In this document: positions 6,938 to 53,818 of the stretch, piece after piece
How positions within the stretch are numbered: the first letter of the stretch is position 1
Layout: the number at the start of each line of letters is the position of its first letter
Assembly: GCA_964503265.1 (NCBI GenBank)
Contig: CAZCYO010000001.1
Span: 226,064 to 290,063, forward strand
DNA: 64,000 nucleotides
Direction: 5' to 3'
From: an uncultured Gammaproteobacteria bacterium
Lineage (GTDB): Bacteria; Patescibacteriota; Microgenomatia; Levybacterales; UBA12049
The notes under the pieces: generated by a model
What the model saw: only the letters and a program-made list of their open reading frames with translations
Told to the model about the DNA's origin: nothing
Database searches by the model: none
Program-made: the position numbers and the translations under genes

Positions 6938-6958
6938 CTCAGCTGATATACTAATTGT

Positions 6959-8200: not shown

Positions 8201-8237
8201 GTTAGAATGTTTATGCTTGCTCTGTGTTTAACTAAGT

Positions 8238-9389: not shown

Positions 9390-11655
9390 TATCAATCCCA
9401 CTCTTTCTATTATTATCGTACATTATCATGTGGAACATGAATTAGTTGATTTGTTGCAGTCACTTGGAACTTCCCGGGAGCAGGAGATTATTGTAGTAGA
9501 TAATGACGAAAAGCCATTCATAGAGAAGCAGTTGACCAAGCAGTTTCCGTCCGTTATTTATCTGAAAAATAAAAAAAATCTTGGATTTGGAGTAGCAAAT
9601 AATATTGGCTCTAGAGTTGCAAAAGGAAAATATCTTTTTTTCATTAATCCCGACACCATAGTTGAAAAAGGTACAGTTGAAAAACTAATAACATTTTTAG
9701 ATAATCACAAAAAAGCTGGCGCTGTAGCGCCACTTCTTTACCACCCTGACGGAACTATTTTTGAGAAGCAAGGTGTTAAGACACTTACACCTCTTCGTGC
9801 ACTATTTTCAACTTCTCTTATTCATCGAATATGGCCAAATAATCCGATTGCACGTATGTATTGGAATGCTTCCTGGAAAAAAAAGACAGTTAAAGAAGTT
9901 GGTGCCTTACCTGGGACTGCATGTATGATAAGAAAAGAGTTGTTCGACGCAGTAGGCGGTTTTGATGAGAAATTCTTTTTATACTTTGAAGAATTTGATC
10001 TATGCCAAAGAATTAATCAGGGGGGATTATCGTTATATATGATTCCTGATACTAAAGTCATACATTTATGGGGTGTTTCAACTGGACAAAAAGATGATAA
10101 AGACCTTATCTTTAAGGAAAGCCAAGAGTATTATTTTAGAAAATATTATGGTTATGTTATAGCAAAGATTCTTACGACTTTCTTAACATTTGATAAATAC
10201 TCCCTACTGTTACTTCTTCTCTTACTACTCGGATTATTTCTGAGGACATACAGGATTACTGAATTATTTATGTTTATTGGGGATTTCGGATGGTTTTACT
10301 TATCTGCCTGGGATATGGTAACCAAAGGAATAATACCGCTAGTGAGTATTCCCTCCTCTGTCGTCTGGCTTCACCAGGGGCCACTCGCTACGTATATGAT
10401 GGCATTTGCATTATGGGCAGGGAGAATGAACCCTGTGGCTCCAGCACTTCTTTTTTCAGTTATTGATATGGTAACTATTTATTTCGTTTTTTTGCTGGGA
10501 AAAAAAATACGGAACGTAGAAACAGGAATAGTAGCTGCGCTTCTTTATGCTACGTCACCGTTAGTGTTAATCAATGTTCGAATGCCATATCACACGGCAA
10601 TTATTCCGTTTTTTGCTTGTAGTGTTATTTTAATGACGTTACTGGTATTGGAAAAGAAAAGATATTACTTCTGGCTTTTTTTCCTATCAGGACTGCTCAT
10701 ACAATTAGAGCTTTCCAATGCCATCGTTATGCTAATCTTTATGTTTCTTTTTATTTTCTATCGAGAAGAGATTACACTTCGTGTTTCTATTATTCGCGAG
10801 AGTGTATGTGGAATGTTACTGGGGATTTCCCCTTTTATTCTCTATGATGTAACCCATCATTTTACCCAAACACTTGGGTTTCCCTTATGGGTGCTTAATC
10901 GCGTTAGGTTATTCTTAGGTCTTACTACTAGTGGAAACGCCACTACTCATAATCTTCCACAAGTATTTGTGGTCTTGTGGGAGCATATTGCAAGAATTAT
11001 ATTTCCGTACTCAGAAATAATCGTTGCCATCGTTATACTGCTTGCTGTTACTATAATAGGAAGAAAAATAGTAACTACAAAGAAAGCGCTGTTACATAAT
11101 AAATCTTTTATTTTATTATTATTGTGGATCATTGTTCCATTTGTTAGTTTCATAGTTCATGCGGCGCCGGGAGATGCTTATTTTCCATTTCTCTTCCCAG
11201 CCATTATTCTGGGCGTAGCATATGCTTTCTCAGAGCTTTCTAACAATAAACGTATATTCACGTTATTTGTGGTTGTTTTTTTAAGTGTTTTTAATGCAGG
11301 GTACACTCTTTCACAAGATTATTTTCTTTCCACAGAAACTGGTGCTCATTATATGCCACCACATGGATATGGTTTTGGGCCAGCTTTTTATATTCAGAAT
11401 ACAGTTGCAAATAAGGTAACGAAGGATGCTGATGGTAACTCTATTCGTTTACGGGTAGGAGGATATCAAGGAAGTGTTAAAACAGGTGGGGATCAGTTTA
11501 AATATCTGCTTATGCAAAAAGGAGTGAAGCTTTCCTCCAATGCATCGTTAACGTATACAATTTATGAATCAAAGCGTGATATTCCACCAAATGAATCTGT
11601 CTTTTATCAAAATAATTACTATTTTGTAACAAAGACAACTAATGTTAATTTATAG
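9382..11655 (+). CDS. Fusion protein: N-terminal GT2 glycosyltransferase plus polytopic GT-C-like membrane domain.
   Basis: LSIIIVHYHVEHELVDLLQSL...IIVVDNDEKP and FINPDT (GT2), followed by about 400 aa of TM helices and a short C-terminal soluble tail. 757 aa. Confidence 0.7.
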   Translation: MNSINPTLSIIIVHYHVEHELVDLLQSLGTSREQEIIVVDNDEKPFIEKQLTKQFPSVIYLKNKKNLGFGVANNIGSRVAKGKYLFFINPDTIVEKGTVEKLITFLDNHKKAGAVAPLLYHPDGTIFEKQGVKTLTPLRALFSTSLIHRIWPNNPIARMYWNASWKKKTVKEVGALPGTACMIRKELFDAVGGFDEKFFLYFEEFDLCQRINQGGLSLYMIPDTKVIHLWGVSTGQKDDKDLIFKESQEYYFRKYYGYVIAKILTTFLTFDKYSLLLLLLLLLGLFLRTYRITELFMFIGDFGWFYLSAWDMVTKGIIPLVSIPSSVVWLHQGPLATYMMAFALWAGRMNPVAPALLFSVIDMVTIYFVFLLGKKIRNVETGIVAALLYATSPLVLINVRMPYHTAIIPFFACSVILMTLLVLEKKRYYFWLFFLSGLLIQLELSNAIVMLIFMFLFIFYREEITLRVSIIRESVCGMLLGISPFILYDVTHHFTQTLGFPLWVLNRVRLFLGLTTSGNATTHNLPQVFVVLWEHIARIIFPYSEIIVAIVILLAVTIIGRKIVTTKKALLHNKSFILLLLWIIVPFVSFIVHAAPGDAYFPFLFPAIILGVAYAFSELSNNKRIFTLFVVVFLSVFNAGYTLSQDYFLSTETGAHYMPPHGYGFGPAFYIQNTVANKVTKDADGNSIRLRVGGYQGSVKTGGDQFKYLLMQKGVKLSSNASLTYTIYESKRDIPPNESVFYQNNYYFVTKTTNVNL

Positions 11656-13024
11656 GATATATCATACGTAGAAATTTCATAATGCCTTGTGAATTGGTAT
11701 TAACTCCTAAATCGTACGTAGGGGACTGATAAAATCCTAGGAAATAAATGATAAGAGAAAAATTTATAAGTATAAATAGAAAACAAATAATATACATTGT
11801 TTTTGTATTAAATCGATTTTTTAGATAATCAAATAAACATGCTATTCCAAATGAAAGGAAGGGAAGCGTAGAGGTTAACATTCTTACGCTAAATGATTCT
11901 CCTTGTTGCCACGCAGACCAACTAGCTATGAGGTAATACTCTACTACAAATAAGGTAATGAAATACCATCCAAGAGATTTTTCTTTTTTACTAAACGGTA
12001 CTAACCCTAGAATTCCTATGATAACTCCTGGTGACCACCAGAGAAGTCCAATTTTAGAGTTAATAAGTAGCTCAAGCAAATGGGGATTGAGTAAATAAAA
12101 CCCTTCTTTACCGGCAATATATGGACTACGCGTGAACGTCCCGTACATAAGATACCAAACATACATTTGAATCGAGAAAACTAATAGGAAGCCTGCAAAG
12201 AGTACTAGTATATAAAGAAAGTTAGCTACAATGGCACGAAAATTATGTGATTGTATTTTTTGCACTGCATGTTTTCCTATCGCGATAACTGGAAGAAGCA
12301 AAAATATACCCTCTTGTGTCCTAGTCATTGCCATATATCCAACAGTCATGCCAATTGTAAAATAGAGTAATTTTGAAGGATTTGAAATACTCCGTATAAA
12401 TAATAATAAAAAAATACAACTAAGGAGAAATGTTAATGGAAGTGAGTTAACGACATCGATAGCAGCGTAATAGAAAAGAAATGTCGCAAACGTCAGAAAA
12501 ATAATTGTCAACATTGTTACCGATTTACTAAAATATTTTTTAAGCTGAAGAGAAAGTAGATATAGTCCGAGAGAAACAAATAGTACGTTCCATACGCCAG
12601 TTATAATTTGGTATATATCGGAATAACCCAAATTGCTAATATTTGGATTAAAGAAACGTAGTGTATTTGATATACTATCTGCAAATGTAAAAGCTGGAAG
12701 CCATGAGAGAGGAGCTCCCACAGGATATCTGTTCACTGTATAACCAGTTTTTGTATAGTCATTGACGTAACCTAGGGGTTCTTCTACCGCTCTATTATTA
12801 TTTTCGTGAGAATAGTGATGTCCGAGTTCATTTTTAAATTGTATGTCATGATCTTTATAAATTGATCTCGTGAATGCATAGTAAAAAATTCCATCACCAT
12901 AGACTGCTTGACCGACAATTATATAGTGAAGAAGAAAAACTCCAACTAAAAAAGGGAAGATACCAAAGAATATTAATCGCTTAAAAAGCATCTTTTTATT
13001 ATACTGTGGTAGAATTAAATACAC
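11645..13024 (-). CDS. Polytopic membrane protein, GT-C-like. Converges on the previous gene with an 11-bp tail-to-tail overlap.
   Basis: 459 aa, many hydrophobic helices, extracytoplasmic loop YGDGIFYY... Confidence 0.45.
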   Translation of the reverse strand: MYLILPQYNKKMLFKRLIFFGIFPFLVGVFLLHYIIVGQAVYGDGIFYYAFTRSIYKDHDIQFKNELGHHYSHENNNRAVEEPLGYVNDYTKTGYTVNRYPVGAPLSWLPAFTFADSISNTLRFFNPNISNLGYSDIYQIITGVWNVLFVSLGLYLLSLQLKKYFSKSVTMLTIIFLTFATFLFYYAAIDVVNSLPLTFLLSCIFLLLFIRSISNPSKLLYFTIGMTVGYMAMTRTQEGIFLLLPVIAIGKHAVQKIQSHNFRAIVANFLYILVLFAGFLLVFSIQMYVWYLMYGTFTRSPYIAGKEGFYLLNPHLLELLINSKIGLLWWSPGVIIGILGLVPFSKKEKSLGWYFITLFVVEYYLIASWSAWQQGESFSVRMLTSTLPFLSFGIACLFDYLKNRFNTKTMYIICFLFILINFSLIIYFLGFYQSPTYDLGVNTNSQGIMKFLRMIYPIN

Positions 13025-13027
13025 CAG

Positions 13028-13789
13028 ATGAACACATCAGTTATAATTATAACGAAAAACGAAGAAAAGAATATCGAAGAGTGTATTAAAACACTTGAAG
13101 GATACGATGAAATTATTGTGGTAGATGATAATTCATCGGATGCAACTGCAAAAATTGCTAAAAAACTTGGTGCCCAAGTATATGAGCATTCACTTGAGGG
13201 TGATTTTGCCGCCCAGCGGAATTTTGGGCTACAGAAAGCGAAAGGATCATGGATTCTTTTTATTGATGCAGACGAACGGATGAGCCCACAGCTTAATTAC
13301 GAAATTCATAGTCAGATTAATGATGCTATGAGTATTTACAGTGGGTTTTATATTCGGCGAATTGATAAAATGTGGGGAAAGACTATAACACATGGTGAAA
13401 GTAGTCAAACGAAATTTCTACGACTTGCTAAAAAGGGAAGTGGAGACTGGATAGGAATGGTGCACGAGCGATGGATGGTAAACGGAAAAGTTGGGATGCT
13501 TAAACATCCACTCATGCATTTTCCCCATCAAACGATTCGTGAATTTGTTACTGAGATTAATTATTATACTGATTTAAGAGCAGGGGAACTTAATGATAGA
13601 AAAGTAAAAGTTCGAAGACGTGATATTTTCCTTTTTCCATTAGGTAAATTTATTCAAAACTATTTTTTTCGATTAGGAATACTCGATGGGTTAATTGGAT
13701 TACTTCAAGCGATTCTCATGAGTTTTCATTCGTTTTTAGTTCGAGGTAAGCTTTGGTTGCTACAAAATAAAAACTATGAGCAGCTATAA
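13028..13789 (+). CDS. GT2 glycosyltransferase (LPS-core-type, WaaE/KdtX-like).
   Basis: SVIIITKNEEKNIEECIKTL...IIVVDDNSSD, FIDADE (DxD). Confidence 0.75.
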   Translation: MNTSVIIITKNEEKNIEECIKTLEGYDEIIVVDDNSSDATAKIAKKLGAQVYEHSLEGDFAAQRNFGLQKAKGSWILFIDADERMSPQLNYEIHSQINDAMSIYSGFYIRRIDKMWGKTITHGESSQTKFLRLAKKGSGDWIGMVHERWMVNGKVGMLKHPLMHFPHQTIREFVTEINYYTDLRAGELNDRKVKVRRRDIFLFPLGKFIQNYFFRLGILDGLIGLLQAILMSFHSFLVRGKLWLLQNKNYEQL

Positions 13790-14483
13790 AGGGCTACCAA
13801 CACTTGAAGTACTTGAAGGAGCTTGGAGATATAATACTTGGATATCTGAAGCCATACTTCCACATCTTCACAGTCCTATCCTTGAGGTTGGGGCTGGGAC
13901 CGGAAATATAAGTTCAATAGTATTGCGGCATCACTCTCTGTATGTTTCAGATGTAGATGAATATCTTGTAAATACACTAAAAAAGAAACTATCAAAAAAT
14001 GGAAATGTTAATTGTGAAAAACTAGATATAACAAAAAATAATTCCCGTTTCACTAATTATTTTTCTTCACTTTACGCAATTAATGTACTTGAACATATAG
14101 ACGACGATTTACAAGCTTTAAAAAACATGTATAGTCTACTTAATGATGGTGGTACTTTGGTGATACTTGTTCCAGCAAAACAAAATGTATATTCTCGACT
14201 TGATAAGGTACTTGGGCACTATCGAAGATATGAAAAAGAAGGATTGAAAATAAAAGTAGAAGAAGCAGGCTTTATAGTAAAAAAAATATATTTTTTTAAT
14301 TTTCTTGGTCTTATTAGCTGGAGAATTCGTGATCTCTTTGATAAGAGATCTATTCATCTATCTTCTACGCAGATAGCATTATTTGATACACTTGTGCCGT
14401 TATTAAAAAGAGTTGAAAAATATTTTCATATTCCAATCGGAATTTCACTAATTGTTGTTGCGAGGAAGCCGAATGAAAAATAA
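13776..14483 (+). CDS. Class I SAM-dependent methyltransferase.
   Basis: ILEVGAGTGNISS glycine-rich motif I. Overlaps the upstream GT2 gene by 14 nt. Confidence 0.75.
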   Translation: MSSYKGLPTLEVLEGAWRYNTWISEAILPHLHSPILEVGAGTGNISSIVLRHHSLYVSDVDEYLVNTLKKKLSKNGNVNCEKLDITKNNSRFTNYFSSLYAINVLEHIDDDLQALKNMYSLLNDGGTLVILVPAKQNVYSRLDKVLGHYRRYEKEGLKIKVEEAGFIVKKIYFFNFLGLISWRIRDLFDKRSIHLSSTQIALFDTLVPLLKRVEKYFHIPIGISLIVVARKPNEK

Positions 14484-14582
14484 GGGTATAATCATTTTTC
14501 TTATTTGGAGCATCAGTATCTTTTTTTTATATTTCTTTTTTCTTTTCCAGCGTAATATTAGTTCTATAACTACTATTTTAAA

Positions 14583-16322
14583 ATGAAAAATATTTGGTTT
14601 AAAATATTTATTTCTTGTATATTTTTTCTTGGACTATCAACGTATCTCACGTATCCTCTTATTTTTCATTTCACTGATAGTGTAACTAGTCTCGGTGATG
14701 AGCTTCTTATAATATGGATACAAAACTGGGTAATTCACTCATTGCAAACAAATATATGGGGAATTTTTCAAGCAAATATATTTTATCCTTATCATAATTC
14801 TCTAGCATTTTCTGAGACATTTATTACCACAAGTGTATTAGCATATCTCCCATATCTGTTAACTAAGCAGCCGGTAATTACCTTGAATTTCACACTTTTT
14901 ACGTCGACATTTCTTTTTGGTTTTTCTGTTTACTTACTCTGTTTTTATGTGACAAAAAAGAATGCTATTGCATTGGTATGTGGAACACTGGCTATATGCT
15001 CACCAGTGGTGTTAGACAAATCAGTACACTTGCAAGTACTTTCAATTTCGTTTGTACTATTTGCATTACTGGCATACATAGCATTCCTAAAGCGTAAAAA
15101 GATTTCCTATTTTCTTTTATTTCTTTTCTTTTTTCTTTTACAAGTCTATAACAGTTTTTTACCTGGTTACTTTATTATTTGTAGTTCAGTTATTCTAACG
15201 TATTTTTTTGTTCAATATAAGAAAGCTTCGATTACTATTTTTTGGAATAAATACATTGTTATTTCTACTCTATTTTGTGTAATGCTTTGTCTGCCAGTTA
15301 TAGTCCCATACTATCAAGTATCAAAAGAATTTAATTTTGTTCGTGATATCCGAGAATCGATTCATTTGGGACTTCAGCCTGAAGATCTTCTTTATGGGAG
15401 TCAGTATACTCGATTAGCTCCTTTTCTCACGAAGAATTTGAGTTTCTTACATCAATCAACTATTGAACTAAAAAATGGATATTTGGGGGTAGTATTGACG
15501 CTGTTAAGTATTATAGCAGTAGGGTATGGATGTAAAAAATGGAAAAAAAAGGACCCGCTGTCAAATGGGTTTCTCTCGATTGCCTTATTTGGGTTGATAT
15601 TAAGTTTCGGCCCATTTCTCCATCTTGGAAGACACACAATTCATACACCCTTTCCAATTCCTCTTCCTTACGCTCTATTTTATGCTCTTGCACCAGGTTT
15701 TAAAGGATTTCGAAATGCAGCTCGATGGGAAATGTTATTTGTTATAGGGATCACTGTCGTTATCGCAATTATGCTTTCAGATTTTCTCAAAAACAAAACT
15801 AAAATAGTTGTATGTATCATTCTTTTTAGTTTATTAGTAGGAACTGTTATTGAATATGATTTTCCTAGGCATCTTCAGCCTATCCCTTCAATTCCAAAAG
15901 TAAACCAATGGCTTACAACGAGATTAGATACGAGTGTTGTAATAGAAATGCCGATATATGCATGGTATATGCATCCATATGCAACTCAGGAGCTGTTTAG
16001 AGATTATTATTCAGTCTCGAACTTTCTTCCGTTAGTAAATGGTGCCAGTGGGTATTCACCAATTCCTTGGGAAAAAAACTCCAAGCAACTGATGATAGAA
16101 TTTCCCTATGAGCCTTCGTTTGTTAGAATGAAAAAAATTGGTATAAATTATATTATTTTTCATAAAAATGAATTTGACATGCTTAATAAAAATAATTTCA
16201 TGATTGATAGTAAACGAATAGATGATGGAGAAACAATACTCAATCAGCTAAAAAATAATAGAAATGTTACCTTAGTGAAAGAATTCCCTGGTGATTATGT
16301 TTTCAAAATAAATTATGATTAG
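14583..16322 (+). CDS. Polytopic membrane protein with C-terminal soluble domain, GT-C-like.
   Basis: About 400 aa hydrophobic N-terminal region with an LGDELL acidic loop motif. About 150 aa soluble C-terminus. Confidence 0.45.
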   Translation: MKNIWFKIFISCIFFLGLSTYLTYPLIFHFTDSVTSLGDELLIIWIQNWVIHSLQTNIWGIFQANIFYPYHNSLAFSETFITTSVLAYLPYLLTKQPVITLNFTLFTSTFLFGFSVYLLCFYVTKKNAIALVCGTLAICSPVVLDKSVHLQVLSISFVLFALLAYIAFLKRKKISYFLLFLFFFLLQVYNSFLPGYFIICSSVILTYFFVQYKKASITIFWNKYIVISTLFCVMLCLPVIVPYYQVSKEFNFVRDIRESIHLGLQPEDLLYGSQYTRLAPFLTKNLSFLHQSTIELKNGYLGVVLTLLSIIAVGYGCKKWKKKDPLSNGFLSIALFGLILSFGPFLHLGRHTIHTPFPIPLPYALFYALAPGFKGFRNAARWEMLFVIGITVVIAIMLSDFLKNKTKIVVCIILFSLLVGTVIEYDFPRHLQPIPSIPKVNQWLTTRLDTSVVIEMPIYAWYMHPYATQELFRDYYSVSNFLPLVNGASGYSPIPWEKNSKQLMIEFPYEPSFVRMKKIGINYIIFHKNEFDMLNKNNFMIDSKRIDDGETILNQLKNNRNVTLVKEFPGDYVFKINYD

Positions 16323-17916
16323 TGCTGCAATTCTAATAGGTATTTATGCATATAGCATTTTTTTTCTTGGAATTGCAAAAGTTCTAACATCATTTACTAT
16401 TGGCATAGTTACAATAGTATTTGTTTCTATTCTTTTAGCTCTCTTTCTAAAAAAGAGAAGAGATTTTTCTTTCTCGTTTCAACAGTTCGATACTACAAAT
16501 CTAATTGTATTACTAATTCTCTTGTTACAAGCTGTTTTTAATCTTATCGGTGCGTTGGGTCCTGAATATTCATTTGATGCGCTGTGGTATCATTTAATGC
16601 TTCCGAAATTGTATCTTACGCATCATGCCATATACCATGTTCCTGGTGGCTTACTCTATTATTCCGACATGCCAAAACTAGGAGAGATGCTGTTTGTAGC
16701 TGCGCTAACTTTTCATACTGAAATACTCGCTAAGCTTATTCAATTTTCTTTCGGAGTCCTAATTTCTGTTCTCATATATCAAACTTCACGAAAATACTTC
16801 TCTTACTTCATATCACTTCTTGTCGTGCTATTGTTTTATGGAAATCTAGTTGTTGCTTGGGAATCCACAGTAGCGTACATAGATCTTATCAGAACATTTT
16901 ATGAATTTTTTTCATTACTTATTTTTCTAACATGGGTTAAAGAATCAAAAGATCGTTACTTGTATTTGAGTGGAGTGATACTTGGGTTTGCAATTTGTAC
17001 AAAACTTCTTTCTCTTAGTTCACTAGTTATTCTTAGCGGTATGGTTCTCTTTTTTGTAGGTAAGCAGAGAAAAGAAATAGCAATAAAAAAAATGATTTAT
17101 TTTTTGTTTTCTGCACTAATTATTCCTCTCCCTTGGTTTGTTTTTTCTTTTATAAATACGCACAATCCAGTATACCCATTTTTTACTCCTCTCTATCCTA
17201 CTCACGTTTCATGGACTCTTTTACATCCTTTTATTTTTTTTCGGGATATAGTTCAGATTTTTACTCAAGCTGCCGATCCTATTTCACCAGTTTATTTAGT
17301 TGTTCTGCCTTTTTTGTTATTTTATCCTTCTTTTCGAAAAGAAATCAAGATTATTGCAATTTATAGTTTGGGGTCGATTATTCTTTGGTATATCACACCA
17401 CGAACAGGTGGGGGAAGATTCATGCTGCCTTATTTACCAGGTTTTTCTCTGATTGTAGGTGAAATACTTTTCATTCTCTCAAAAGATAAAAAGTATAATT
17501 TCTATCGTATTGCGATTACAGGAATGATTATTTGTATCTCCGTAAGCACACTTATCTATAGAGGAGTTGCCAGTGCTAAATATTTTCCATATCTGTTAGG
17601 AAAAGAGTCGAAGCAATCGTTTCTTGTTAATCATTTGAATTTTTCTTTTGGGGATTTTTTAGATATCGATGGGAAAATACAAAAAATGCTACTACCTACT
17701 GATGTCGTGTTACTTATTGGTTTTCATAATCTTTATTACGTAGATTTTCCATTTATTGACATGTCATATATTCGCAATGGTGATAGGTTCACCTATATCG
17801 CTACACAATATGCATCTCTTCCGCTTAACTATACCAACGCACAGAAGGTCTACGAAGAAAAAAAGACAGGGGTTGTACTCTATCGAGTTGGAGAAGAAAC
17901 ATGGAAAAGCGAATAA
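16315..17916 (+). CDS. Polytopic membrane protein, GT-C-like (GT39/ArnT-like).
   Basis: 533 aa, more than 10 TM helices. In operon with the other GT-C-like genes. Confidence 0.45.
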   Translation: MISAAILIGIYAYSIFFLGIAKVLTSFTIGIVTIVFVSILLALFLKKRRDFSFSFQQFDTTNLIVLLILLLQAVFNLIGALGPEYSFDALWYHLMLPKLYLTHHAIYHVPGGLLYYSDMPKLGEMLFVAALTFHTEILAKLIQFSFGVLISVLIYQTSRKYFSYFISLLVVLLFYGNLVVAWESTVAYIDLIRTFYEFFSLLIFLTWVKESKDRYLYLSGVILGFAICTKLLSLSSLVILSGMVLFFVGKQRKEIAIKKMIYFLFSALIIPLPWFVFSFINTHNPVYPFFTPLYPTHVSWTLLHPFIFFRDIVQIFTQAADPISPVYLVVLPFLLFYPSFRKEIKIIAIYSLGSIILWYITPRTGGGRFMLPYLPGFSLIVGEILFILSKDKKYNFYRIAITGMIICISVSTLIYRGVASAKYFPYLLGKESKQSFLVNHLNFSFGDFLDIDGKIQKMLLPTDVVLLIGFHNLYYVDFPFIDMSYIRNGDRFTYIATQYASLPLNYTNAQKVYEEKKTGVVLYRVGEETWKSE

Positions 17917-19016
17917 AAATAATACTCTATTTAATTGCAATTTTACTAGCGCTTATCGTTAGTAAAGTATTTTTTCAAGATTCCTATTTGGACTTCCGAG
18001 TGTATTATGAAGCTGCTATAAATACATTACAGTATGGTGATCCTTACTCCACGACAGATCCAAACATGTCGTATTTATACCCTCCTTTAACAATTATTCT
18101 TTTTTTACCTCTTACTGTTTTTTCTGTGACGAGTGCAGAAAAAATATGGCTTGTTTTATCAATACTTCTTTTAATTATTTCATTATGGATACTATTTAAA
18201 TTACTTCGTATTTCGTGGAGATCTTATGAGGGACTAGCGTATAGTATATGCTGTTTAGTTTTTTTTCCATTTAAATTCACACTTGGCATGGGACAAATCA
18301 ATATCGTTATTCTTTTTTTTCTTATTCTTTTTTTATATTTCTATGAAAAACAGAAAACATTGTCAGGATTATTTTTAACAGTCGCTATTTTTATCAAAAT
18401 CTCACCCCTTCTATTTCTTGGCGAACTTTTTCTGAGAAAACAGTGGAATATCCTGTTTGGGGTGGTGATCACGGCACTTTGTTTAAGTATTATGTCACTC
18501 TTTATGTTTCCACTTCCGACTGCATATTATGTTTCTTCGATCCTTCCGAGTATTTCACAAGCTTGGCCAACTGCATATTTCAATCAATCACTTACCGGAT
18601 TTTTAGGGAGATTGCCTGTTATGGCATATATGCTTATTATCGCTCGTAGCCTAATTGTTTTAGGAGTACTTGTTATAACAAGTGTGATAGTTAAAAAATA
18701 TGAAAAAGAACGAAATCAACTGCTTGTACTGAGTAGTATCTTTCCAGTACTTTTGATTATTAGTAGCTTTTCATGGCAACATCATTTTATCCTGCTTATC
18801 CCGTCTTATATTATTCTGAGTCATGTGGTCGTTTGCCGTAACGTATTTAATCGCCAAACTATAGTAATTCTCATAAGTATTTTGATAAGTTATCTTTTAG
18901 TTGGGTATAATATAAAGCAACCTGAACTCATGCCCGTACTAGTACAGTCACATGTCTTTTATGGAACCGTAATGCTATGGATAGTGCATTTGTATGTTAT
19001 TCAGAAAGAGTTATGA
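17901..19016 (+). CDS. Polytopic membrane protein, GT87/DUF2029-like mannosyltransferase family.
   Basis: 371 aa, multi-TM, size and hydropathy typical of DUF2029 proteins. Confidence 0.4.
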   Translation: MEKRIKIILYLIAILLALIVSKVFFQDSYLDFRVYYEAAINTLQYGDPYSTTDPNMSYLYPPLTIILFLPLTVFSVTSAEKIWLVLSILLLIISLWILFKLLRISWRSYEGLAYSICCLVFFPFKFTLGMGQINIVILFFLILFLYFYEKQKTLSGLFLTVAIFIKISPLLFLGELFLRKQWNILFGVVITALCLSIMSLFMFPLPTAYYVSSILPSISQAWPTAYFNQSLTGFLGRLPVMAYMLIIARSLIVLGVLVITSVIVKKYEKERNQLLVLSSIFPVLLIISSFSWQHHFILLIPSYIILSHVVVCRNVFNRQTIVILISILISYLLVGYNIKQPELMPVLVQSHVFYGTVMLWIVHLYVIQKEL

Positions 19017-20221
19017 AAAAAATACTTCTTACTTGTTTACTCATAAGTTTCATAGGGGGCGAAGTGACTCGTTTTACTATTTTTAGTAATATTTCTTTTC
19101 GATTACTTGATGTCATTGCACTGTGTATATTCTTAGCATGTATCTTTGAAAATGTTCGTTCAATCTCTAAAAAAAATGTATTTAATTTCACAGCAGCTAA
19201 ATGGTTAGGCGGATTTTTTATAATTGGAATCTTATCGCTTCTTTTTAATCTTCCTAATTTCCCTATTTCTGAGGTTGGTGAAGGATTACTCTATCTGATG
19301 CGACTTGTACTGTATAGTGGCATCTTCTTTTATCTAAAGGATATAAGGAAAGATGAACAATCATACGTAGTTACAGGTATTACGATTACCGGAAGTATAT
19401 TAGTGGTCTTCGGGTTTATCCAGTATTTTTATTATAACAATCTTCGCAATGTGTATTATCTTGGGTGGGATGATCATATGTATCGCATCTTTTCAGTATT
19501 TTTAGATCCTAATTTTACTGGTATGCTTTTTTCACTTTTTGCTCTTTTTCTGATGGGAAGAATTTGGTCGAAACGAAAAGATTCGCAGAAAAATGGTATA
19601 TATTTATTGGTGTGTATACTTGCCGTTACACTTGTGGCTGTCGTAATGACGTTTTCACGAAGTGCACTGATTTCACTTGGAACTGGGAGTATCATCTTTT
19701 TATCGCTAATTGGTAGAAAGAAATATTTTCTTTATTTACTATTAGTACTTGGTGGAATGATAGTTTTGACAATTCCATTCTTTTATATTGAAAATGTAAA
19801 TTTGTTTCGATCAGCATCCAGTGAAGCCCGAATTGAATCAGCACGAAATGCGATTAGTATTAGTAAAGATCATCTTTTAACAGGAGTTGGGTTCAATACC
19901 TACCGCTATGTACAGGTAAAATATGGGTTTAGGCAGGGAATAGGAGCTGAAGTGAGTCATGCAGATAGTGGCACTGATAATAGTTATCTTTTTATTCTCG
20001 CAACGACAGGAATAGGGGGACTTATTGTGTATATTGGTTTTTTGCGTTCACTTTTTCAAATGTCGTGGAATGCGTATAAAGAGAAAAGATCTATTTTTGC
20101 TATCGTTTTTATTGCGTCACTCTCAAGTGTGCTTATTGATAGTTTATTTATCAACAGCTTGTTTTATCCGTTTATTATTGTATGGCTCTGGATGCTCGTA
20201 GGACTCATTAATTATAGTTGA
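19013..20221 (+). CDS. O-antigen ligase/polymerase family protein (Wzy_C-like).
   Basis: TFSRSALISLGTG motif typical of the O-antigen ligase family. Multi-TM. ATGA start/stop overlap with the upstream gene. Confidence 0.65.
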   Translation: MKKILLTCLLISFIGGEVTRFTIFSNISFRLLDVIALCIFLACIFENVRSISKKNVFNFTAAKWLGGFFIIGILSLLFNLPNFPISEVGEGLLYLMRLVLYSGIFFYLKDIRKDEQSYVVTGITITGSILVVFGFIQYFYYNNLRNVYYLGWDDHMYRIFSVFLDPNFTGMLFSLFALFLMGRIWSKRKDSQKNGIYLLVCILAVTLVAVVMTFSRSALISLGTGSIIFLSLIGRKKYFLYLLLVLGGMIVLTIPFFYIENVNLFRSASSEARIESARNAISISKDHLLTGVGFNTYRYVQVKYGFRQGIGAEVSHADSGTDNSYLFILATTGIGGLIVYIGFLRSLFQMSWNAYKEKRSIFAIVFIASLSSVLIDSLFINSLFYPFIIVWLWMLVGLINYS

Positions 20222-21029: not shown

Positions 21030-21300
21030 ACAGGTGTTATTTTAGGAGATTTTACACATGGAAGCAATACTCGAGAAAATAATCGTCTCATAGTTTGATT
21101 ATACAAAAATAATTTAGTATACTCTCGTAGTCTTTTAGGAAAGAATCATAATTGCATGATCTCTTTGCTATTAGTGCATTTTTTAGCACATTAATAGTTT
21201 TTGCGAACAAATTATCTACTTGGACGAGGTGATAGGTGAGTAATTCATTACTTTTCTTTCTTCTCGTCCAAGTTGGACGAACACAAAAAAGGAGGAGTCG

Positions 21301-21666
21301 ATGTCTACTATCTTTGCACAATCTGATCTCGATGCTGCAAAACGACGAGCGATAGATCGCTATTTTTTTACACAGCTGGAAAAACAGCTTGCTAGTGCGA
21401 CTACCATACCTCTGGAAATCCGCCTTAGCGGAGCTCGGGTTATCTTTACTGTTTTCGGGGGCAAAGCCCACCGTGAGCAGTACAAGAAGAATTGGGTACT
21501 ACCATTAGGCATTATCGAGCTATTGATTGCTGCGGAAGTGCCGCCGGCGATGCTTATTCACTTCCTGGAGGAGGATTTACTGCTGATTCCAGGTATTGGA
21601 GAGGAGGAGGAGGAACAGATTCTCATTGCTCGTGCCCCGTTTCTCCCGGTATTCACCGGAAGTTGA
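21301..21666 (+). CDS. Hypothetical small protein with a C-terminal helix-hairpin-helix motif (GC-rich islet 1, ORF 1).
   Basis: AAAAGGAGGAG Shine-Dalgarno 7 nt upstream of ATG. GC-rich codon usage. LLLIPGIGEEEEEQILIAR matches the HhH consensus L-P-G-I-G...I. Confidence 0.55.
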   Translation: MSTIFAQSDLDAAKRRAIDRYFFTQLEKQLASATTIPLEIRLSGARVIFTVFGGKAHREQYKKNWVLPLGIIELLIAAEVPPAMLIHFLEEDLLLIPGIGEEEEEQILIARAPFLPVFTGS

Positions 21667-21684
21667 AGGTTCAGGAGGTATACT

Positions 21685-21891
21685 ATGGTGGAAGACGTCC
21701 GATATGACTTGGCAGGTCTCGAAGAGATCTGTCATAGCATCTTCCGAGGTCACAATCAGGTTATTCTTCTGGCTGAAAACTATTCTGGTCGCGAGCTGGA
21801 AGCAGTTATGCGGCGACTCAAGGAGGCTACCGGGAAGAACTATACCTATGAATGGGAGCCCGGAAAGCGCATCGAAGTTCGGTGCACATAG
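21685..21891 (+). CDS. Hypothetical small protein (GC-rich islet 1, ORF 2).
   Basis: AGGAGG SD 8 nt upstream. 68 aa. GC-rich codons. Confidence 0.5.
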   Translation: MVEDVRYDLAGLEEICHSIFRGHNQVILLAENYSGRELEAVMRRLKEATGKNYTYEWEPGKRIEVRCT

Positions 21892-21922
21892 TACTTACAT
21901 GCCGAAAGGCAAGGAGGAGGTC

Positions 21923-22201
21923 ATGGAATTTGAACGTGCGTGTATCGCGTATGGCATGCATTTGATGACATTGTCTATGACTCTGTCACAAATGAAGGAC
22001 ATCACCGAAACACCAGCATTTGACGTATTTCTTCACGCATTGAAGGAGACGTCAACGTCTATGGCGTATGGGTCTCTCACAAAGGAGGAGGTGAGTGCTT
22101 TTAGCGCTTCTCTTGGTATTTTGCTCCAAGTTGGTGGGGCGCAGCTAGCTGAAATCAACTTCCAGAAGATGCTGAAGTCATTGGCCGCATTGCAACAATA
22201 G
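21923..22201 (+). CDS. Hypothetical small protein (GC-rich islet 1, ORF 3).
   Basis: AAGGAGGAGG SD directly upstream of ATG at 21923. The long 201-aa form in the ORF track spans the upstream gene and is unlikely. Confidence 0.5.
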   Translation: MEFERACIAYGMHLMTLSMTLSQMKDITETPAFDVFLHALKETSTSMAYGSLTKEEVSAFSASLGILLQVGGAQLAEINFQKMLKSLAALQQ

Positions 22202-22320
22202 AATAGCAAGAGAATGGCGTTTTTGTGAGAAGAATTATTCACAAATGTATAACGTAGTGTTCAACTGATTGCCATCGCGATTTGCGTGTATGGAGTACCA
22301 GTTGGCACAACACTATACAT

Positions 22321-22349
22321 GTTCTTCTTCACAAGAACGCCTTTTTTAT
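22321..22349 (+). terminator. Candidate intrinsic terminator for the islet 1 operon.
   Basis: GTTCTT-cttcac-AAGAAC hairpin followed by gccTTTTTTaT. Confidence 0.35.
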
Positions 22350-22394
22350 GTCTTTTTTCTCTGAAACTTTGAAACTATGAGGCTCTGAAACTAT

Positions 22395-27857: not shown

Positions 27858-28825
<968 letters not shown>

Positions 28826-28882
28826 ATTTGAAGCATATGGCTTATGGCACATGGCAAATAGTTATTACTTATTTTGAAAAAC

Positions 28883-28910
28883 TATTAGCTATACGCTATT
28901 AGCTATACGC
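28883..28910. repeat. Perfect 14-bp tandem duplication (TATTAGCTATACGC x2) upstream of atpB.
   Basis: Read directly from the sequence. Confidence 0.9.
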
Positions 28911-29023
28911 TAGATTCTATTTTACCTCGTGAGCCTATTTCGAGTCAAGGCGGAAATTGGATGGGCGCTGGCGCCCACCCGTGATAAGTGGTGCGCCAGC
29001 ATGTGTGCACTGGGAATTTGTTG

Positions 29024-29557
29024 TTAGTTGCAGTTTATCTTCAGCAGTGGTGACAGTGTGTGTTGACCTCCGAGAATGAACCCTTCGAGTATGTTCCCTT
29101 CGTGCTCGGCGAGAGTGCACGTCTGCGTGATGAGCGTGCGGGCATCATGGATATCGCTCAGAAGCACGTTTGCGGTAAATGTTTCTCCCCGCCTAAGCCC
29201 AAGGGCTCGTTTCCGGAATTCATCGCGACTGAGAGTAGAGTATTCCTCGACGGTCTCCTCCTTCGCACGTATGTTTTCCACGCTTGTCCAGTTGACATGG
29301 TGCAGAGCTTTGAAAACGCCGTTGAGCATGATCGAGAAGACGAGTGTGAACTGTTCAGGGGTACTGTCGGCGCAGAGTTCCAGAGTATCCATCAACTTGT
29401 GGATGAGGAAGTGGACCTGTTCGTAGATCTCCGCGTAGGTGAGATGAACGCCCGTGAGCGTTTGTGATGCTTCCATCAGTTTCTTGATGTGCATCTCGGT
29501 TAGCTTCGGGGTAGACATAATACCTTCTGCAGTGACAGTAACTTCGATCTCATCCAT
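29024..29557 (-). CDS. Hypothetical protein (GC-rich islet 2, ORF 2).
   Basis: AAAGGAG SD upstream of ATG. 177 aa. GC-rich codon usage (GAG, CTG, GTC) unlike neighbouring genes. Confidence 0.5.
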   Translation of the reverse strand: MDEIEVTVTAEGIMSTPKLTEMHIKKLMEASQTLTGVHLTYAEIYEQVHFLIHKLMDTLELCADSTPEQFTLVFSIMLNGVFKALHHVNWTSVENIRAKEETVEEYSTLSRDEFRKRALGLRRGETFTANVLLSDIHDARTLITQTCTLAEHEGNILEGFILGGQHTLSPLLKINCN

Positions 29558-29646
29558 GAACAGACTCCTTTCGTTGGGGAGATATCATGACAGAGAGGAA
29601 GGCGGTCCTCTCATTGAGTGCCGGTAACCTACCGGCAGGATGGACC

Positions 29647-30042
29647 TCAAGTTGCAGTCTCATTTTCCTCGCCACGAATGACGAGGTCAATGGGTTGATC
29701 ATTGAAAACGATGAGCGTAGGTATATCGCTCTTTTCGTCTTCAGAATCATCAGGGCTTGTTTCCAGAACGAGTCGTGGCTGAGTAGACAGGACGATGTCA
29801 GATTTCATGCAGACTTCTACGACCTGTCCTAGCTCATCACTGCTATATACAATGATGAAGACAAGAAGCGAAGAATTCTCAAGCTTAATCCAGCCGTGAT
29901 TATCTATTTGCTCGAGAAGTTCGTCGATCGATTCACTGGATGCACCAGGAATAATCGAGATATCGAGCACATAGATTAACGGTTTTAGCTCGAGAAAAAA
30001 ATCACTAGGTGCGTCAGGTATATTCAGCATCGGAACCTCCAC
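29647..30042 (-). CDS. Hypothetical protein (GC-rich islet 2, ORF 1).
   Basis: GGAGGTTCCG SD upstream of ATG. 131 aa, acidic. Confidence 0.5.
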   Translation of the reverse strand: MEVPMLNIPDAPSDFFLELKPLIYVLDISIIPGASSESIDELLEQIDNHGWIKLENSSLLVFIIVYSSDELGQVVEVCMKSDIVLSTQPRLVLETSPDDSEDEKSDIPTLIVFNDQPIDLVIRGEENETAT

Positions 30043-30273
30043 AGTACGCTAATTGTCTATGTACCTTCCGCCCAAGGCAAAGACACGAGATGGAGAAGTA
30101 CTTCTCGACCTGGTGACTGTGCCTTAGGCGTTATAACAACAAATTTTAATGTGCGAAAAAATGATGCTTTCTCAAGATACATACGCAAATACTATGCTCT
30201 TTTGAAAGCAGGGGGATTATACTAAAAATAGAGCACGAGAACAATTATAGGACTGTATACTATATATACTATA

Positions 30274-33200
30274 TTAATTAAGGGTTTTTCGAGGGTTGAT
30301 GATTCGCTCTGCTAAGATGACTTGTTTGTCATCTTTCGTGTTTAATTTCCCGTCAATCACGACGACATTATCCTGAACGAGGACGTCTTTAAAGAGTTCA
30401 TATACTTTCGGGAAAACGACGACCTCAACGGTAATACCTTTTTCGTTCGCAATCGTGATAAACGCCATTTCAGCATTATTTTTCTTTGTAAAGATTTTTT
30501 TCGCAGATTCGATGATGCCACCTATTTTAACGATCATTCCTTCTTCTTCACCTTCAAGCAGTTCAATTTCATGCGTGATCACTTCTTTAATTTGAAGGAG
30601 CGTATCCTGGTAGGGGTGGGCTGTTAAGTAAAAGCCTAAGTATTCTTTCTCAAAATTAAGGCGCTCTTCGTTCGTAAATTCTTCGATGTCTTCAGCTGGA
30701 TTAAACGCAATCTCATTCGCGTCATCATCACCAAAAAGAGAAACTTGGCCTTCGGCAGCATCTTTTTTCGTTTTGTTACACATGTTTATAATCTCAGGCA
30801 TGTCCATAAGCATCTGTGCTCTTTTTCCAAATGCGTCCATCGCGCCTGCCTTAATCAGGCTTTCCATAGTCTTTTTATTTACAGTTCCCATATCGACACG
30901 TGAACAAAAGTCCGTAAGACTGATAAATGGTCGTATTTTTCTCGCAGCGAGAATTTTCTCGATCGCTGCTGTCCCGACGTTTTTGACAGCCGTAAATCCA
31001 AACCGCACATTTGTCTCGTCTTCGATGGAGAATTCATGAATAGATTTATTAATATCTGGTGGAAGGACCGGAACACCCAGGCGTTTACATTCAGCGACAG
31101 CCATAGCGATTTTTTCGTTTTTTGCAGGCCCTGTGGTGCCTCTAGACTCAGCGGTTAAGAGGGCTGCCATAAATTCGACAGGATAATGAGCTTTTAGATA
31201 CGCAGTTCGAAAAGCGATAGTGGCATAACATGATGCGTGAGCTTTATTAAATCCATATCCAGCAAATGGTGCGATAAGCTCAAACATGTCTTTGGCTTTT
31301 TTCTCACTTAAGCCTTTTTCAATCGCGCCAGAGATGAACTGTACCTCCTGTTTTTTCATCTCTGCTGGAATTTTCTTTCCCATAGCCTTACGGAATTTGT
31401 CCGCATCAAGCCAGGTATATCCTGCTATTTCAATCGCAGTGAGAAGTACATCATCTTGAAACGCGAGAATACCATATGAAGGTTTTAGAATCGTCTCAAG
31501 TCTTGGATCTGGATAGGTGATCGGCAGGCGACCATGTTTTCGAGCGATGAATTCAGGAATTGCAGCCATCGGACCTGGCCTGTAGAGTGCGACCATCGCC
31601 ATGAGATCGAAAATAGTGGTTGGACGAAGTTCTTTAATATATTTTCTCATGCCTGCAGACTCCAGCTGGAAAATACCTGTCGTTTCTCCTTGTGATAACA
31701 AACGGTAGGTAGGTGGATCATCGACGTCAACTTTCGTGAAATCTATGTCTATATTTTGATTTATTTTTACGAATTTCAGCGTTTCCTCGATAATAGTTAA
31801 ATTACGAAGACCTAAAAAGTCCATCTTGAGAAGTCCCACACCATCTTCACCGACAGTGTACATATCGTACTGAGTCACGACTTTATCTCCGTTCGTCTCT
31901 CGTTGAAGCGGAACGTACTCCGTGAGTGGTTTATCTGCGATCACGACTCCAGCTGCATGGATCGAAGCGTGTCTGGCGACACCTTCTAATTTTTGAGCGA
32001 TTTGAATGAGCTTTTGGGTTTCAGGTTCTGTATCGTATGCTCTTTTCAGGTCAGGGGACTGTTTCATGGCCTGCTCAAGTGACATTGAATGTCCCTGCCA
32101 TCCCGGTGGAATCATTTTCGAAATACGATCTGGTCCTGTGTATGGCATGCCAAGTGCACGCCCAGCATCTTTCACAGCCCCCTTTGCCTCCATCGTTCCA
32201 AAGGTAATAATTTGTGCGACTTTATCTTCACCGTATTTCTCAGTTACATATTTGATCACTTCCTCGCGACGAGTATCTGCAAAGTCGAGGTCGATATCTG
32301 GTGCAGAGGGACGCAGTGGATTTAAAAATCGTTCAAACGGAAGTTTAAAGTAAAATGGATCGACGTCAGTAATGCGAAGAATATATCCGACGACAGAGCC
32401 TGCAGCTGATCCTCTTCCAGGTCCCACAGCAATGCCATGATCCTTCGCCCAGTTCACGAAATCCTGTACAACGAGGAAATATGTTTCATATCCCTTCGTG
32501 ATAATAATCTCAAGCTCATACTTAACACGTTCCATAACTTCATCAGTGGCCTGAGGATATCGATTTGGCAACCATTCATAGACAAGTTCTTCCAAATATT
32601 CTTTCGCTGTTTTTCCATCTGGTACATCAAAAATAGGCATGATCCATTTACCAAGTGTTATCTCGACATTACATTTCTCAGCGATTTTGACTGAATTCTC
32701 AAGCGCTTCAGGTAAATCTGGGAATTCAGCTTCCATTTCCGCTGCACTTTTAATATAAAAATCAGGGGAGTTAACCATGGAGAGTTTACGGTTTTTATCA
32801 AGCATGGTCGACTGTGTTTGGATACAAAGGAGAATTTCATGAGCCTCGGCGTCTCCTTTACGGGTATAGTGGTTATCATTTGTGGCGACGAGCGGGATGC
32901 CGAGCTTTTTAGAGAGTGCGATCAGTTTTTCATTTGCTTTTTTTTGTGGGGGAACATCGATATGGCGCTGGATTTCGAGATAAAAATTATCTTGGCCAAA
33001 TATTTCATTTAATTTCTTCGCTCGTTTTTCTCCTTCTTCATCCTGGTCATTAACAAGTGGTTCAGTCACATAGCCATTGACACACGCTGAGAGACAAATG
33101 AGTCCTTGGCTATGCTTCTTAAGCAGTTCTAGATCGGTTCGAGGTTTATAATAGTAACCTTCAAGATAGGAAACAGAGACGATCTTCATGAGATTCTTAT

Positions 33201-53193: not shown

Positions 53194-53459
53194 TTAGCTT
53201 ATTGTCATTGCGAGAAGCCAAGCGACGAAGCAATCTCTTCTCCTGTTATTCTGGAAAGCACCGACTTTTCCAGAATCCTATATCAAAATTAACCCCATAG
53301 TTCTATTTTTCCTTATCTTTTGTTATAATTCAGGCGTACATTTACATTGTGAGATATCACACATGGTCGGCTTTTTGTTCATTCACGAAGTGAATAAGAA
53401 GCTTGCCATGTGGCAGCCAAGTTGTACTACAATTTGCATTACTACGGTTGGAGAAAAAG

Positions 53460-53762: not shown

Positions 53763-53818
53763 TCACTGCATACAGTCAATTCTTGCACCATATAGGTGCT
53801 GAACTTAGGGGGGTCTCT

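Follow-up and report, generated by a model that had tools for sequence, protein, structure and literature searches.

Integron cassettes are small, mostly orphan genes of foreign composition that are exchangeable at a fixed position beside a promoter platform, and their attC sites are imperfect, strand-asymmetric hairpins conserved in structure rather than in sequence. The Correia elements of Neisseria are intergenic repeats that bear promoters and hairpins, and stem-loops that stabilize the 5' untranslated region (UTR) of an mRNA or are processed by RNase III are exemplified by the early mRNA sites of T7 and the 5' hairpin of ompA. Candidate-phyla genomes are rich in orphan genes and small islands, and how these bacteria, with their tiny genomes and many genes of obscure origin, gain genes is poorly understood. 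Here we analyze a 64-kb stretch of DNA (the window) from a Candidatus Levybacteria (Patescibacteria) genome, and in particular an insert of about 1.3 kb between dnaE and the atp operon, which is the second of four islets rich in guanine and cytosine (GC) and carries two genes, ORF127 and ORF177, named for the lengths of these open reading frames (ORFs). Islet 2 is probably a lineage-specific, horizontally acquired, self-contained and exchangeable accessory gene cassette, belonging to a small family of units, within this sub-lineage of Levybacteria, that each join a leader to a payload.

On the minus strand, dnaE (33495-30274) is followed by an interval of 1,421 bp, then by atpB (annotated from 28852) and the remaining atp operon. 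The highest-GC segment spans 28,950-30,260. In 300-nt windows the GC content reaches 0.55 within 28,836-29,903, the maximum of the 64 kb (mean 0.379, standard deviation 0.051) and more than three standard deviations above the mean; together with a third-codon-position GC (GC3) of up to 0.63, this bears out the description of a compositionally foreign segment in the initial annotation. The insert also includes an AT-rich leader of about 140 nt that had been counted as spacer. For comparison, dnaE with 6-kb flanks was taken from 80 species-level Levybacteria genomes, whose DnaE proteins are 66-76% identical to that of the window, and atpB was located by tblastn. In the 75 loci that hold both genes the median gap is 59 bp; it is at most 150 bp in 62 of them and exceeds 300 bp in only seven, where it contains unrelated genes of normal GC. 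Neither ORF127 nor ORF177 is encoded in any of the 75, and no islet leader is present in these other dnaE-atpB loci. Because 62 of the 75 gaps are this short and none holds either gene, islet 2 is a lineage-specific insertion, as had been proposed, rather than an ancient core gene.

The right boundary of the insert is marked by the predicted resident atp promoter, TTGACT-N18-TAAAAT (28919-28948, minus strand; 10/12 matches in a promoter scan), which lies outside it. The motif CTTGAC-N17/18-TAAAAT(AG) is found upstream of atpB in a sister strain (contig L083, below) and in distant relatives, within short dnaE-atpB spacers. Since this conserved promoter is intact at 28948-28919, right of the insert, the insert lies after the stop codon of dnaE and ahead of the -35 box that belongs to the ancestral atp promoter. 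The unit occurs in independent assemblies, namely a 360,915-bp NCBI/ENA record, the Logan assembly of SRR12487046 and, as a diverged copy, SRR22387748; these derive from at least two sequencing runs, and it is therefore not an assembly artefact. The diverged copy, on a 1-kb Logan contig (L001), has the same dnaE-leader-ORF127-ORF177 order at 95% nucleotide identity and encodes an ORF127 relative (P0003) with 93% amino-acid identity. Islet 2 has the three features of a generic horizontally acquired islet: its composition is deviant, relatives lack it at the syntenic site, and it varies from strain to strain. The dnaE-atpB junction is a recurrent insertion spot across the Levybacteria clade, because seven other members hold unrelated genes there. 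The gaps in these genomes (L006, L009, L010, L021, L028, L033 and L077) measure 656-2061 bp, and their contents, of normal GC, include an acetyltransferase-like gene in L006, a pair in L021 that by eye resembles a small toxin-antitoxin module, and membrane-protein fragments.

The closest relative by AtpB (P0005, 93% amino-acid identity) is encoded on L083, an 89-kb Logan contig from run SRR15237805. Across dnaE and the atp genes this contig shares about 80-84% nucleotide identity with the window, and its dnaE-atpB spacing is about 1.15 kb. Homology with the window runs past the dnaE stop codon and the leader up to GCACATTGATAATT, and resumes just upstream of the atp -35 box. The L083 payload between these breaks is unrelated (z = 1.5 for the alignment of the two payloads), about 0.96 kb long and has a GC content of 0.50-0.53. 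It has its own long 5' hairpin, three small ORFs each led by a Shine-Dalgarno (SD) sequence, and a terminal GC hairpin. In L083 the leader and the resident atp promoter were kept, and the payload between the two hairpins was replaced. The three L083 ORFs (9152-9868) encode an 83-residue protein with two predicted membrane helices, a 38-residue hydrophobic peptide, MEHQPDRPGGTIVIAVMLSLCIFLCILILIISIILYNH, and an 84-residue soluble protein, all orphans.

The leader occupies the first 120-140 nt or so after the dnaE stop codon and comprises a promoter of the form TTGnTn-N17-TATAMT, a hairpin with a U-run and the box TTTTTTMGCACATTRAWA, after which comes a 62-nt mismatch-punctuated hairpin. The predicted promoter (30216-30251, minus strand) consists of CCTATAA (30251-30245), a -35 element TTGTTC (30244-30239), a 17-nt spacer and a -10 element TATAAT (30221-30216). 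The same geometry, with 17-nt spacing, recurs in all five full leader copies (islets 1 and 2, L001, L083 and L084, the last a groundwater metagenome contig in which the leader comes after genes for a cupin and a CDGSH protein). Of the four occurrences of TAGTATAMT in the 64 kb, three belong to the leaders of islets 1, 2 and 4. Next comes a terminator- or attenuator-like element (30155-30210, minus strand), in which hairpin A (30210-30165) precedes AUCAUUUUUU (30164-30155); its predicted folding energy is -15.9 kcal/mol (z -3.2). A hairpin of different stem, again with a U-run, stands at the equivalent place in L083 (z -4.4), islet 1 (z -2.7) and L084 (z -1.3). The conserved box TTTTTCGCACATTAAAATTTGTTGTTA (30134-30160, minus strand) completes the leader. 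An exact 17-nt pattern, TTTTTNGCACATTRAWA, has just two occurrences in the window, one ahead of islet 1 and one ahead of islet 2; it is present as well in L001, L083 and L084, but in 0 of the 80 other Levybacteria loci. When leaders were aligned in pairs with that of islet 2 and scored against shuffles, z was 5.4 for islet 1, 8.8 for L083, 7.2 for L084 and 5.0 for islet 4, and the similarity spans about 120 nt, beyond the promoter hexamers. The 9 kb to the left of the window contain no leader. Two further functions were considered for this region and rejected: a leader peptide (43-residue ORF at 30188-30057) is not conserved, an indel in L001 shifting its frame, and a second promoter within the conserved box would have a -35/-10 spacing that is inconsistent across copies.

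Several short repeats accompany the leaders. The last 12 nt of the islet 2 box form one arm (30134-30145) of a perfect 12-nt inverted repeat, AATTTGTTGTTA, whose second arm (29015-29026, plus strand) overlaps the stop codon of ORF177; the window has no third exact copy, and at a BLAST E value of 0.25 the match may be due to chance. Islet 4 has a 9-nt direct repeat, ACATCCTAT, at 60967-60975 and 61902-61910, and islet 1 a 10-nt inverted repeat, CTCATAGTTT, at 21087-21096 and 22372-22381 with two further sites in the window; either could be a coincidence. The two full leader copies in the window, that of islet 1 (21088-21205, plus strand) and that of islet 2 (30134-30252, minus strand), are in inverted orientation, both pointing to the atp operon, and enclose about 9.1 kb made up of payload 2, the operon and payload 1. 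Transcription of the islet 1 unit would run into atpC in the antisense direction.

The payload of islet 2 begins with hairpin B, a 62-nt imperfect hairpin (30069-30130, minus strand) that was located by an inverted-repeat search and has a predicted folding energy of -34.4 kcal/mol (z -8.2). Its helix is divided by single mismatches into segments of 11, 2, 3, 4 and 5 bp and closed by a loop of 4 nt; the corresponding figures are 12, 2, 3 and 6 bp with a loop of 4 nt in islet 1, and 13, 2, 4 and 4 bp with a loop of 5 nt in islet 4, so that the spacing of mismatches is near-identical in three hairpins of unrelated sequence. A long hairpin occupies the equivalent place in islets 1, 3 and 4, L083 and L084. 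When the whole window was scanned for long hairpins, the top four by stability were the four islet 5' hairpins, and the same scan on 1.08 Mb of other Levybacteria DNA returned only eight, one of which was the L083 hairpin. The irregularities in the six hairpins are symmetric 1x1 mismatches (one is 2x2) rather than bulges. Read on the sense strand, these hairpins have 16 G-U pairs versus 2 A-C positions (p = 0.0013) and 10 pyrimidine-pyrimidine versus 2 purine-purine mismatches (p = 0.04), and the sense strand folds better in 6/6. All four L001 substitutions in hairpin B keep or improve pairing. Because of the G-U asymmetry, hairpin B probably functions on the sense single strand, most simply as part of the 5' UTR of an mRNA, although single-stranded DNA would also fit. 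A hairpin-encoded single-strand promoter, as in plasmid leading regions, was rejected, the arms having no -35 or -10 hexamers.

Further predicted structures follow in the payload. Two hairpins lie between ORF127 and ORF177 (29593-29637, minus strand): UGCCGGUA-GGU-UACCGGCA at 29637-29619 and GAGAGGA-N6-UCCUCUC at 29612-29593. In L001 both stems and the first loop are unchanged; a U to C change (column 617) falls in the loop of the second hairpin and an A to C change (column 602) in the spacer between the two. At the end of the payload stands the GC stem-loop with one bulge that had been noted before, CTGGCGCACCAC...GTGGGCGCCAG (28967-29000, minus strand), which has 14 pairs, a predicted folding energy of -25.9 kcal/mol (z -3.4) and no U-tract. 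Analogous terminal GC hairpins close the L083 payload (z -5.3) and islet 4 (z -5.5). Among Rfam 15 families only three tRNAs reach the gathering score in the window, and a search of 28700-30400 (1.7 kb) at E <= 10 gave two chance-level matches of 15-17 bits against thresholds above 100.

The other three islets have the same layout as islet 2, with a predicted TTGnTn-N17-TATAMT promoter, a long 5' hairpin and two or three SD-led, GC-rich orphan ORFs (two each in islets 3 and 4). Islet 1 (21088-22394, plus strand; 5' hairpin 21218-21273) lies between a tRNA-Thr gene and atpC, just after the latter, and islet 2 lies just before atpB, so that the two bracket the atp operon as the initial annotation had stated. 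Islet 3 (about 53284-54060, plus strand; 5' hairpin 53360-53412) is found between lexA and rsmI, and islet 4 (61912 to about 61005, minus strand; 5' hairpin 61786-61730) between a pgi-like gene and the next gene. The leader recurs at islets 1 and 4, and the long hairpin at all four islets. Islet 3 has at its 3' end only a weak 5-bp stem, which is not significant (z -0.2). It had been suggested that the islet proteins might form related families. An all-vs-all BLASTP and phmmer comparison of 12 cassette proteins, nine from the islets and three from L083, gave nothing below E = 0.2, so that the suggestion fails at the level of sequence, and none of the 12 matches any family library scanned. The islets share a non-coding 5' architecture and not protein families. 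At the 3' end of islet 1 (22216-22342, plus strand) a 127-nt extended stem-loop with a six-U run (-56.8 kcal/mol, z -7.4) precedes the convergent atpC; it may act as a bidirectional terminator or represent a small structured RNA. ORF68 of the same islet (21685-21891, plus strand) has a weak resemblance to L7Ae/L30e RNA-binding proteins that is not significant (Pfam E = 0.18; NCBIfam eL8, E = 0.063); it is centred on VILLAEN...ELEAVMRRLKEA and is suggestive beside so much structured RNA.

Both genes of islet 2 have well-formed starts. ORF177 (29024-29557, minus strand; 177 residues, isoelectric point (pI) 5.3, predicted mostly helical) is preceded by AAAGGAG at 29571-29565, 7 nt before its ATG. 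ORF127 (29647-30030, minus strand; 127 residues, pI 4.05) has GGAGG at 30040-30036, 5 nt before an ATG at 30030. The strand, the SD sequences and the presence of both ORFs were correctly described at the outset, but the first had been given 131 residues. That is the length of the maximal ORF (29647-30042), which opens with a GTG; we take the ATG at 30030 as the true start because the GTG falls inside the SD sequence, and the database gene call (P0002) also has 127 residues. GC at the three codon positions is 0.57/0.30/0.43 in ORF127 and 0.56/0.35/0.63 in ORF177. The order GC1>GC3>GC2 or GC3>GC1>GC2, with low GC2 (0.30-0.35), is that of coding sequence in both, and for ORF127 a hand calculation from codon-position counts gave a chi-square of about 19.5 (2 degrees of freedom). 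Judged by the correct SD spacing and this periodicity, both ORFs appear to be real genes, and for ORF177 the low dN/dS at its N-terminus (0.14, below) adds to this. Their GC3 of 0.43 and 0.63 compares with 0.22-0.38 in seven host genes, in keeping with the GC-rich codon usage reported earlier. The accompanying description of both proteins as rich in Glu and Asp holds for ORF127 (D+E 20%, K+R 5%), whereas ORF177 (D+E 14%) is no more acidic than host proteins.

Both proteins had been called unassignable, and extensive searches agree. Neither has a match in Pfam, PADLOC, PHROGs, NCBIfam or PDB sequences. In an index of 5.8 billion proteins ORF177 retrieves itself alone and ORF127 itself and the 93% identical P0003, and a full HMMER scan of 1.84 billion representative proteins found no true relative of ORF177. 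Viral-contig scans with ORF127, ORF177 and the leader pattern and a JGI metagenome scan with ORF127 returned nothing, and tblastn of ORF127 against a phage collection and of ORF177 against a plasmid collection returned nothing usable. Two candidate similarities were rejected: P0004 (E = 3e-5 with ORF177) owes its inflated score to the nine weak copies of a translated tandem repeat, and the resemblance of ORF127 residues 23-58 to the helix-turn-helix of CRP/FNR regulators (E about 0.2) is one family counted eight times and is not significant. A free-standing homing endonuclease was likewise dismissed, there being no GIY-YIG, HNH or LAGLIDADG signal in either protein. Within the reach of these searches the two islet 2 proteins are true orphans.

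Taken together, these observations favour the cassette reading, in which a conserved AT-rich leader would supply a sigma-70-type promoter, a hairpin with a U-run and a conserved box. The GC-rich payload, wholly different between copies, would follow in the order long hairpin, two or three SD-led orphan genes and GC-rich hairpin. The unit would be transcribed from its own promoter, starting about 7 nt after 30216, and the hairpin with U-run some 55-60 nt after the predicted start could act as an attenuator or release a leader RNA of about 55-60 nt. Transcripts that read through would carry hairpin B, with its 1x1 and mostly pyrimidine-pyrimidine mismatches, in the 5' UTR of the mRNA, where it may confer stability, mark a processing site or bind a protein. 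The terminal hairpin would end or protect the transcript, and the untouched atp promoter would keep driving the operon. On the modest form of this reading the insertion is tolerated beside an essential operon because the resident promoter was left intact. As to the role of ORF127 and ORF177, we would guess at a strain-specific, fast-turnover function of the conflict or host-interaction type, a guess prompted only by their orphan status and the turnover of payloads.

Several points weigh against the cassette reading. A generic promoter consensus scan omitted the leader promoter, whose -35 element matches at only 3/6 positions. The family is built on few independent copies (four in the window, L083 and L084), and the leaders of islets 3 and 4 can be aligned only in part and were not recovered by nhmmer. 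ORF127 shows no clear protein-level constraint in the comparison with L001 described below, and the AlphaFold2 models of both proteins are unusable (predicted local distance difference test scores of 42 and 43). No mechanism for insertion or payload exchange was found, and no recombinase is encoded in the window. The Pfam-annotated gene lists behind this statement cover about 17 kb around islet 2, about 21 kb at the left edge and ten further window proteins, and the latter comprised housekeeping genes only.

The alternatives place the weight on RNA, on protein function, on chance or on DNA mobility. Divergence and structure tests bearing on the first rest on one pairwise comparison, window versus L001. 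The dnaE C-terminus (30274-30502) has 20 synonymous and 0 non-synonymous changes, with a synonymous divergence (dS) of 0.60; ORF127 has a dS of 0.087, a non-synonymous divergence (dN) of 0.038 and a dN/dS of 0.43, its changes being spread 5/5/8 over the codon positions. Silent-site divergence is thus seven-fold lower in ORF127 than in the adjacent dnaE (Fisher p = 9e-6), and third-position divergence is 6% against 26%. The leader, in three segments, is 5-8% diverged, and the first 21 codons of ORF177 are dnaE-like (dS about 0.5, dN/dS 0.14). Sliding RNA-fold z-scores on the minus strand run from -1.4 to -6.3 through 30,260-29,540, except for +0.84 at 30100-29981, as against about 0 to +1.5 in ORF177, dnaE and atpB, the values of ordinary coding sequence. 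When the 39 L001 substitutions are placed on the minimum-free-energy structure of the window, 18 fall at paired positions (26.3 expected, P = 0.0015) and 9 pairs are broken (17.1 expected, P = 0.002). Low divergence here would reflect either RNA-level constraint or a recent recombination tract. One could suppose that the segment from about 30,210 to 29,560, with leader, ORF127 and intergenic hairpins, is chiefly structured RNA in which ORF127 is untranslated or has a dual role, leaving ORF177 as the only ordinary protein gene. We consider this unlikely, since the start of ORF127 is canonical (GGAGG-5 nt-ATG), its GC periodicity is strong and it has no indel in 384 nt versus three in the flanking non-coding DNA, nothing in 28700-30400 comes near an Rfam threshold, the pairing test within ORF127 alone is not significant (P = 0.16), and a recombination tract common to both strains explains the low divergence equally well. 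It is similarly improbable that the two genes form a two-component conflict module (toxin-antitoxin, abortive infection or anti-defence) that is gained and lost rapidly for this reason. An operon of two genes for small proteins, with a predicted promoter of its own and a position at a fast-turnover site, would suit such a module, as would the toxin-antitoxin-like pair at the L021 junction, the L083 hydrophobic peptide, which is of a kind seen among small membrane toxins, and the very acidic ORF127, which recalls DNA-mimic anti-restriction proteins. Against it, neither protein matches PHROGs, a toxin or antitoxin family of Pfam or any of the 5,027 defence models of PADLOC; the genes do not overlap but are separated by 89 nt that contain hairpins; the pair consists of two acidic proteins, with no basic partner of a toxin-like kind; and the orphan sequences give no remote-homology handle and no usable model.

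It could also be that nothing systematic is present, and that the islets are leftovers of independent horizontal transfers whose upstream likeness reflects the usual strong promoter and common 5' stem-loops. Orphan genes and small islands are, after all, plentiful in such genomes; CCTATAA is unspecific (nine occurrences in the window), the leader profile fits islets 3 and 4 poorly, and the atpB 5' UTR also has a mismatch-punctuated hairpin, so that such hairpins are not exclusive to islets. We nevertheless regard this as very unlikely: the leader similarity extends over some 120 nt and is significant (z 5-9), the 17-nt box is confined to islets and three related contigs, the four best hairpins of the window coincide with the four GC-rich islets, and the resident atp promoter looks quite different. 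A last alternative is that the unit moves as single-stranded DNA, with hairpin B and perhaps the terminal hairpin as structure-specific recombination sites for a recombinase encoded elsewhere, by a logic like that of attC or IS200/IS605, the leader being part of the element or a landing platform. Hairpin B is conserved in structure and not in sequence and is strand-asymmetric like attC, the homology between window and L083 breaks exactly at its base and just past the terminal hairpin, short repeats flank islets 1, 2 and 4, and the four inserts lie in spacers between housekeeping genes with compositionally foreign orphan payloads, like most integron cassettes. No integrase, transposase or HUH protein, however, is encoded in the window or the 9 kb to its left; the hairpin bases have no RYYYAAC/GTTRRRY core and the mismatches are symmetric, with no bulged extrahelical bases; the 5' and 3' hairpins are dissimilar, unlike IS200/IS605 ends; hairpin B stands 5' of the genes behind a promoter, whereas an attC site follows its gene on the 3' side; each of the flanking repeats could by itself be due to chance; and an RNA role accounts equally well for the G-U asymmetry. 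This mechanism, too, seems improbable to us. The broader proposal that the four islets are copies of an undescribed type of small mobile cassette, a leader platform with exchangeable GC-rich payloads, each delimited by a sense-strand hairpin and inserted or swapped by a trans-acting, shape-recognizing enzyme, is doubtful; if true, it would amount to integron-like gene capture built from different parts and to a route by which minimal genomes gain orphan genes.

Returning to the cassette reading, its interest lies in the fact that an essential-gene junction, dnaE-atp, is used twice in two sister strains, with different orphan payloads behind one leader, and that the same grammar occurs four times in 64 kb. 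If general, the leader box and hairpin would be a signature for finding a flexible gene pool, and the roughly 120-nt leader with its hairpin a new conserved non-coding RNA element.

Other features of the window deserve mention. The predicted atpB 5' UTR (28822-28918, minus strand) is longer by about 70 nt or more than in L083 and other relatives. The extra segment, roughly 70 nt or more within 28832-28911 on the minus strand, forms a hairpin punctuated by regularly spaced 1x1 mismatches (z -2.1) and includes a perfect 14-bp tandem duplication (28882-28895 and 28896-28909), which had been reported before at this place and contributes to one arm of the hairpin. L083 lacks this segment: its conserved atpB start, ATGGCAGAGTTCGC, comes about 20 nt after the -10 box. 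In the window the same conserved start is the ATG at 28825 (252 residues), versus the annotated 28852 (261 residues). A hairpin-forming repeat, GTCATTGCGAGAAGCCAAGCGACGAAGCAATC / GTCATCCTGAACGTAGTGAAGGATC, at 53204-53235 (plus strand) recurs in intergenic DNA of L005 (9300-9340), L036, L047, L061 and L065 and appears unrelated to the islet leader. Positions 1-20000 and a further 9 kb beyond the left edge (L085) have a GC content of 0.28-0.36 and carry glycosyltransferase, epimerase and polysaccharide-synthesis genes; this low-GC left third is a second compositional anomaly, opposite in direction to the islets.

Compared with known systems, the islets resemble integron cassettes in their small, foreign, mostly orphan genes, exchangeable at a fixed position beside a promoter platform, and attC in having an imperfect, strand-asymmetric hairpin conserved in structure only. 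They differ in that no IntI was found near them, each platform has one payload and no array, and the platform is repeated at several loci; the islet hairpin is 5' of ORFs served by a dedicated promoter, unlike attC, whose place is 3' of an ORF that usually has no promoter. At their bases the six hairpins (ACTTGG.., CGCCTAAGG.., CACATGG.., TTTTGAACAGG.., GTAATGG.., TGACGATGCC..) have no AAC/GTT in common. IS200/IS605 elements, which encode TnpA (Y1 HUH) and/or TnpB and have similar subterminal hairpins at the two ends, differ from the islets, whose payload proteins have no Pfam match and whose 5' hairpin (55-62 nt, mixed AT/GC) is unlike the 3' one (about 32 nt, GC-rich). Retrons, in which a reverse transcriptase gene adjoins an msr/msd RNA with a long hairpin, also come to mind because a long hairpin precedes the genes, but neither ORF has an RVT (Pfam) or PADLOC retron match. 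From type II toxin-antitoxin systems ORF127 and ORF177 are set apart by their 89-nt gap and the acidity of both proteins, and no toxin-antitoxin or defence signature was found in Pfam, PADLOC or NCBIfam at E <= 1; a novel toxin-antitoxin pair is possible. Like phage morons, the unit has its own promoter and terminal hairpin and a deviant GC content, and sits between two conserved units without disturbing them; unlike them, it is chromosomal, flanked by dnaE and atp genes, with no phage genes nearby and no viral-contig match for its proteins or leader. Correia elements similarly are repeated intergenic segments of about 100-150 nt that bring a promoter and an RNA stem-loop before genes, whereas the leader has no terminal inverted repeats and is never alone, a GC-rich orphan payload following every copy. 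Full-text searches of a paper library brought up no paper with a title or abstract that describes the leader-hairpin element. Stem-loops of the T7 and ompA type are likewise long, imperfect and formed only by the sense strand between promoter and SD sequence; the islets differ from these in their regular 1x1, mostly pyrimidine-pyrimidine mismatches and in the link with swappable payloads. What is new here is the shared leader, the shared hairpin and the payload swap in a sister strain, with both the leader and the hairpin being conserved and previously undescribed.

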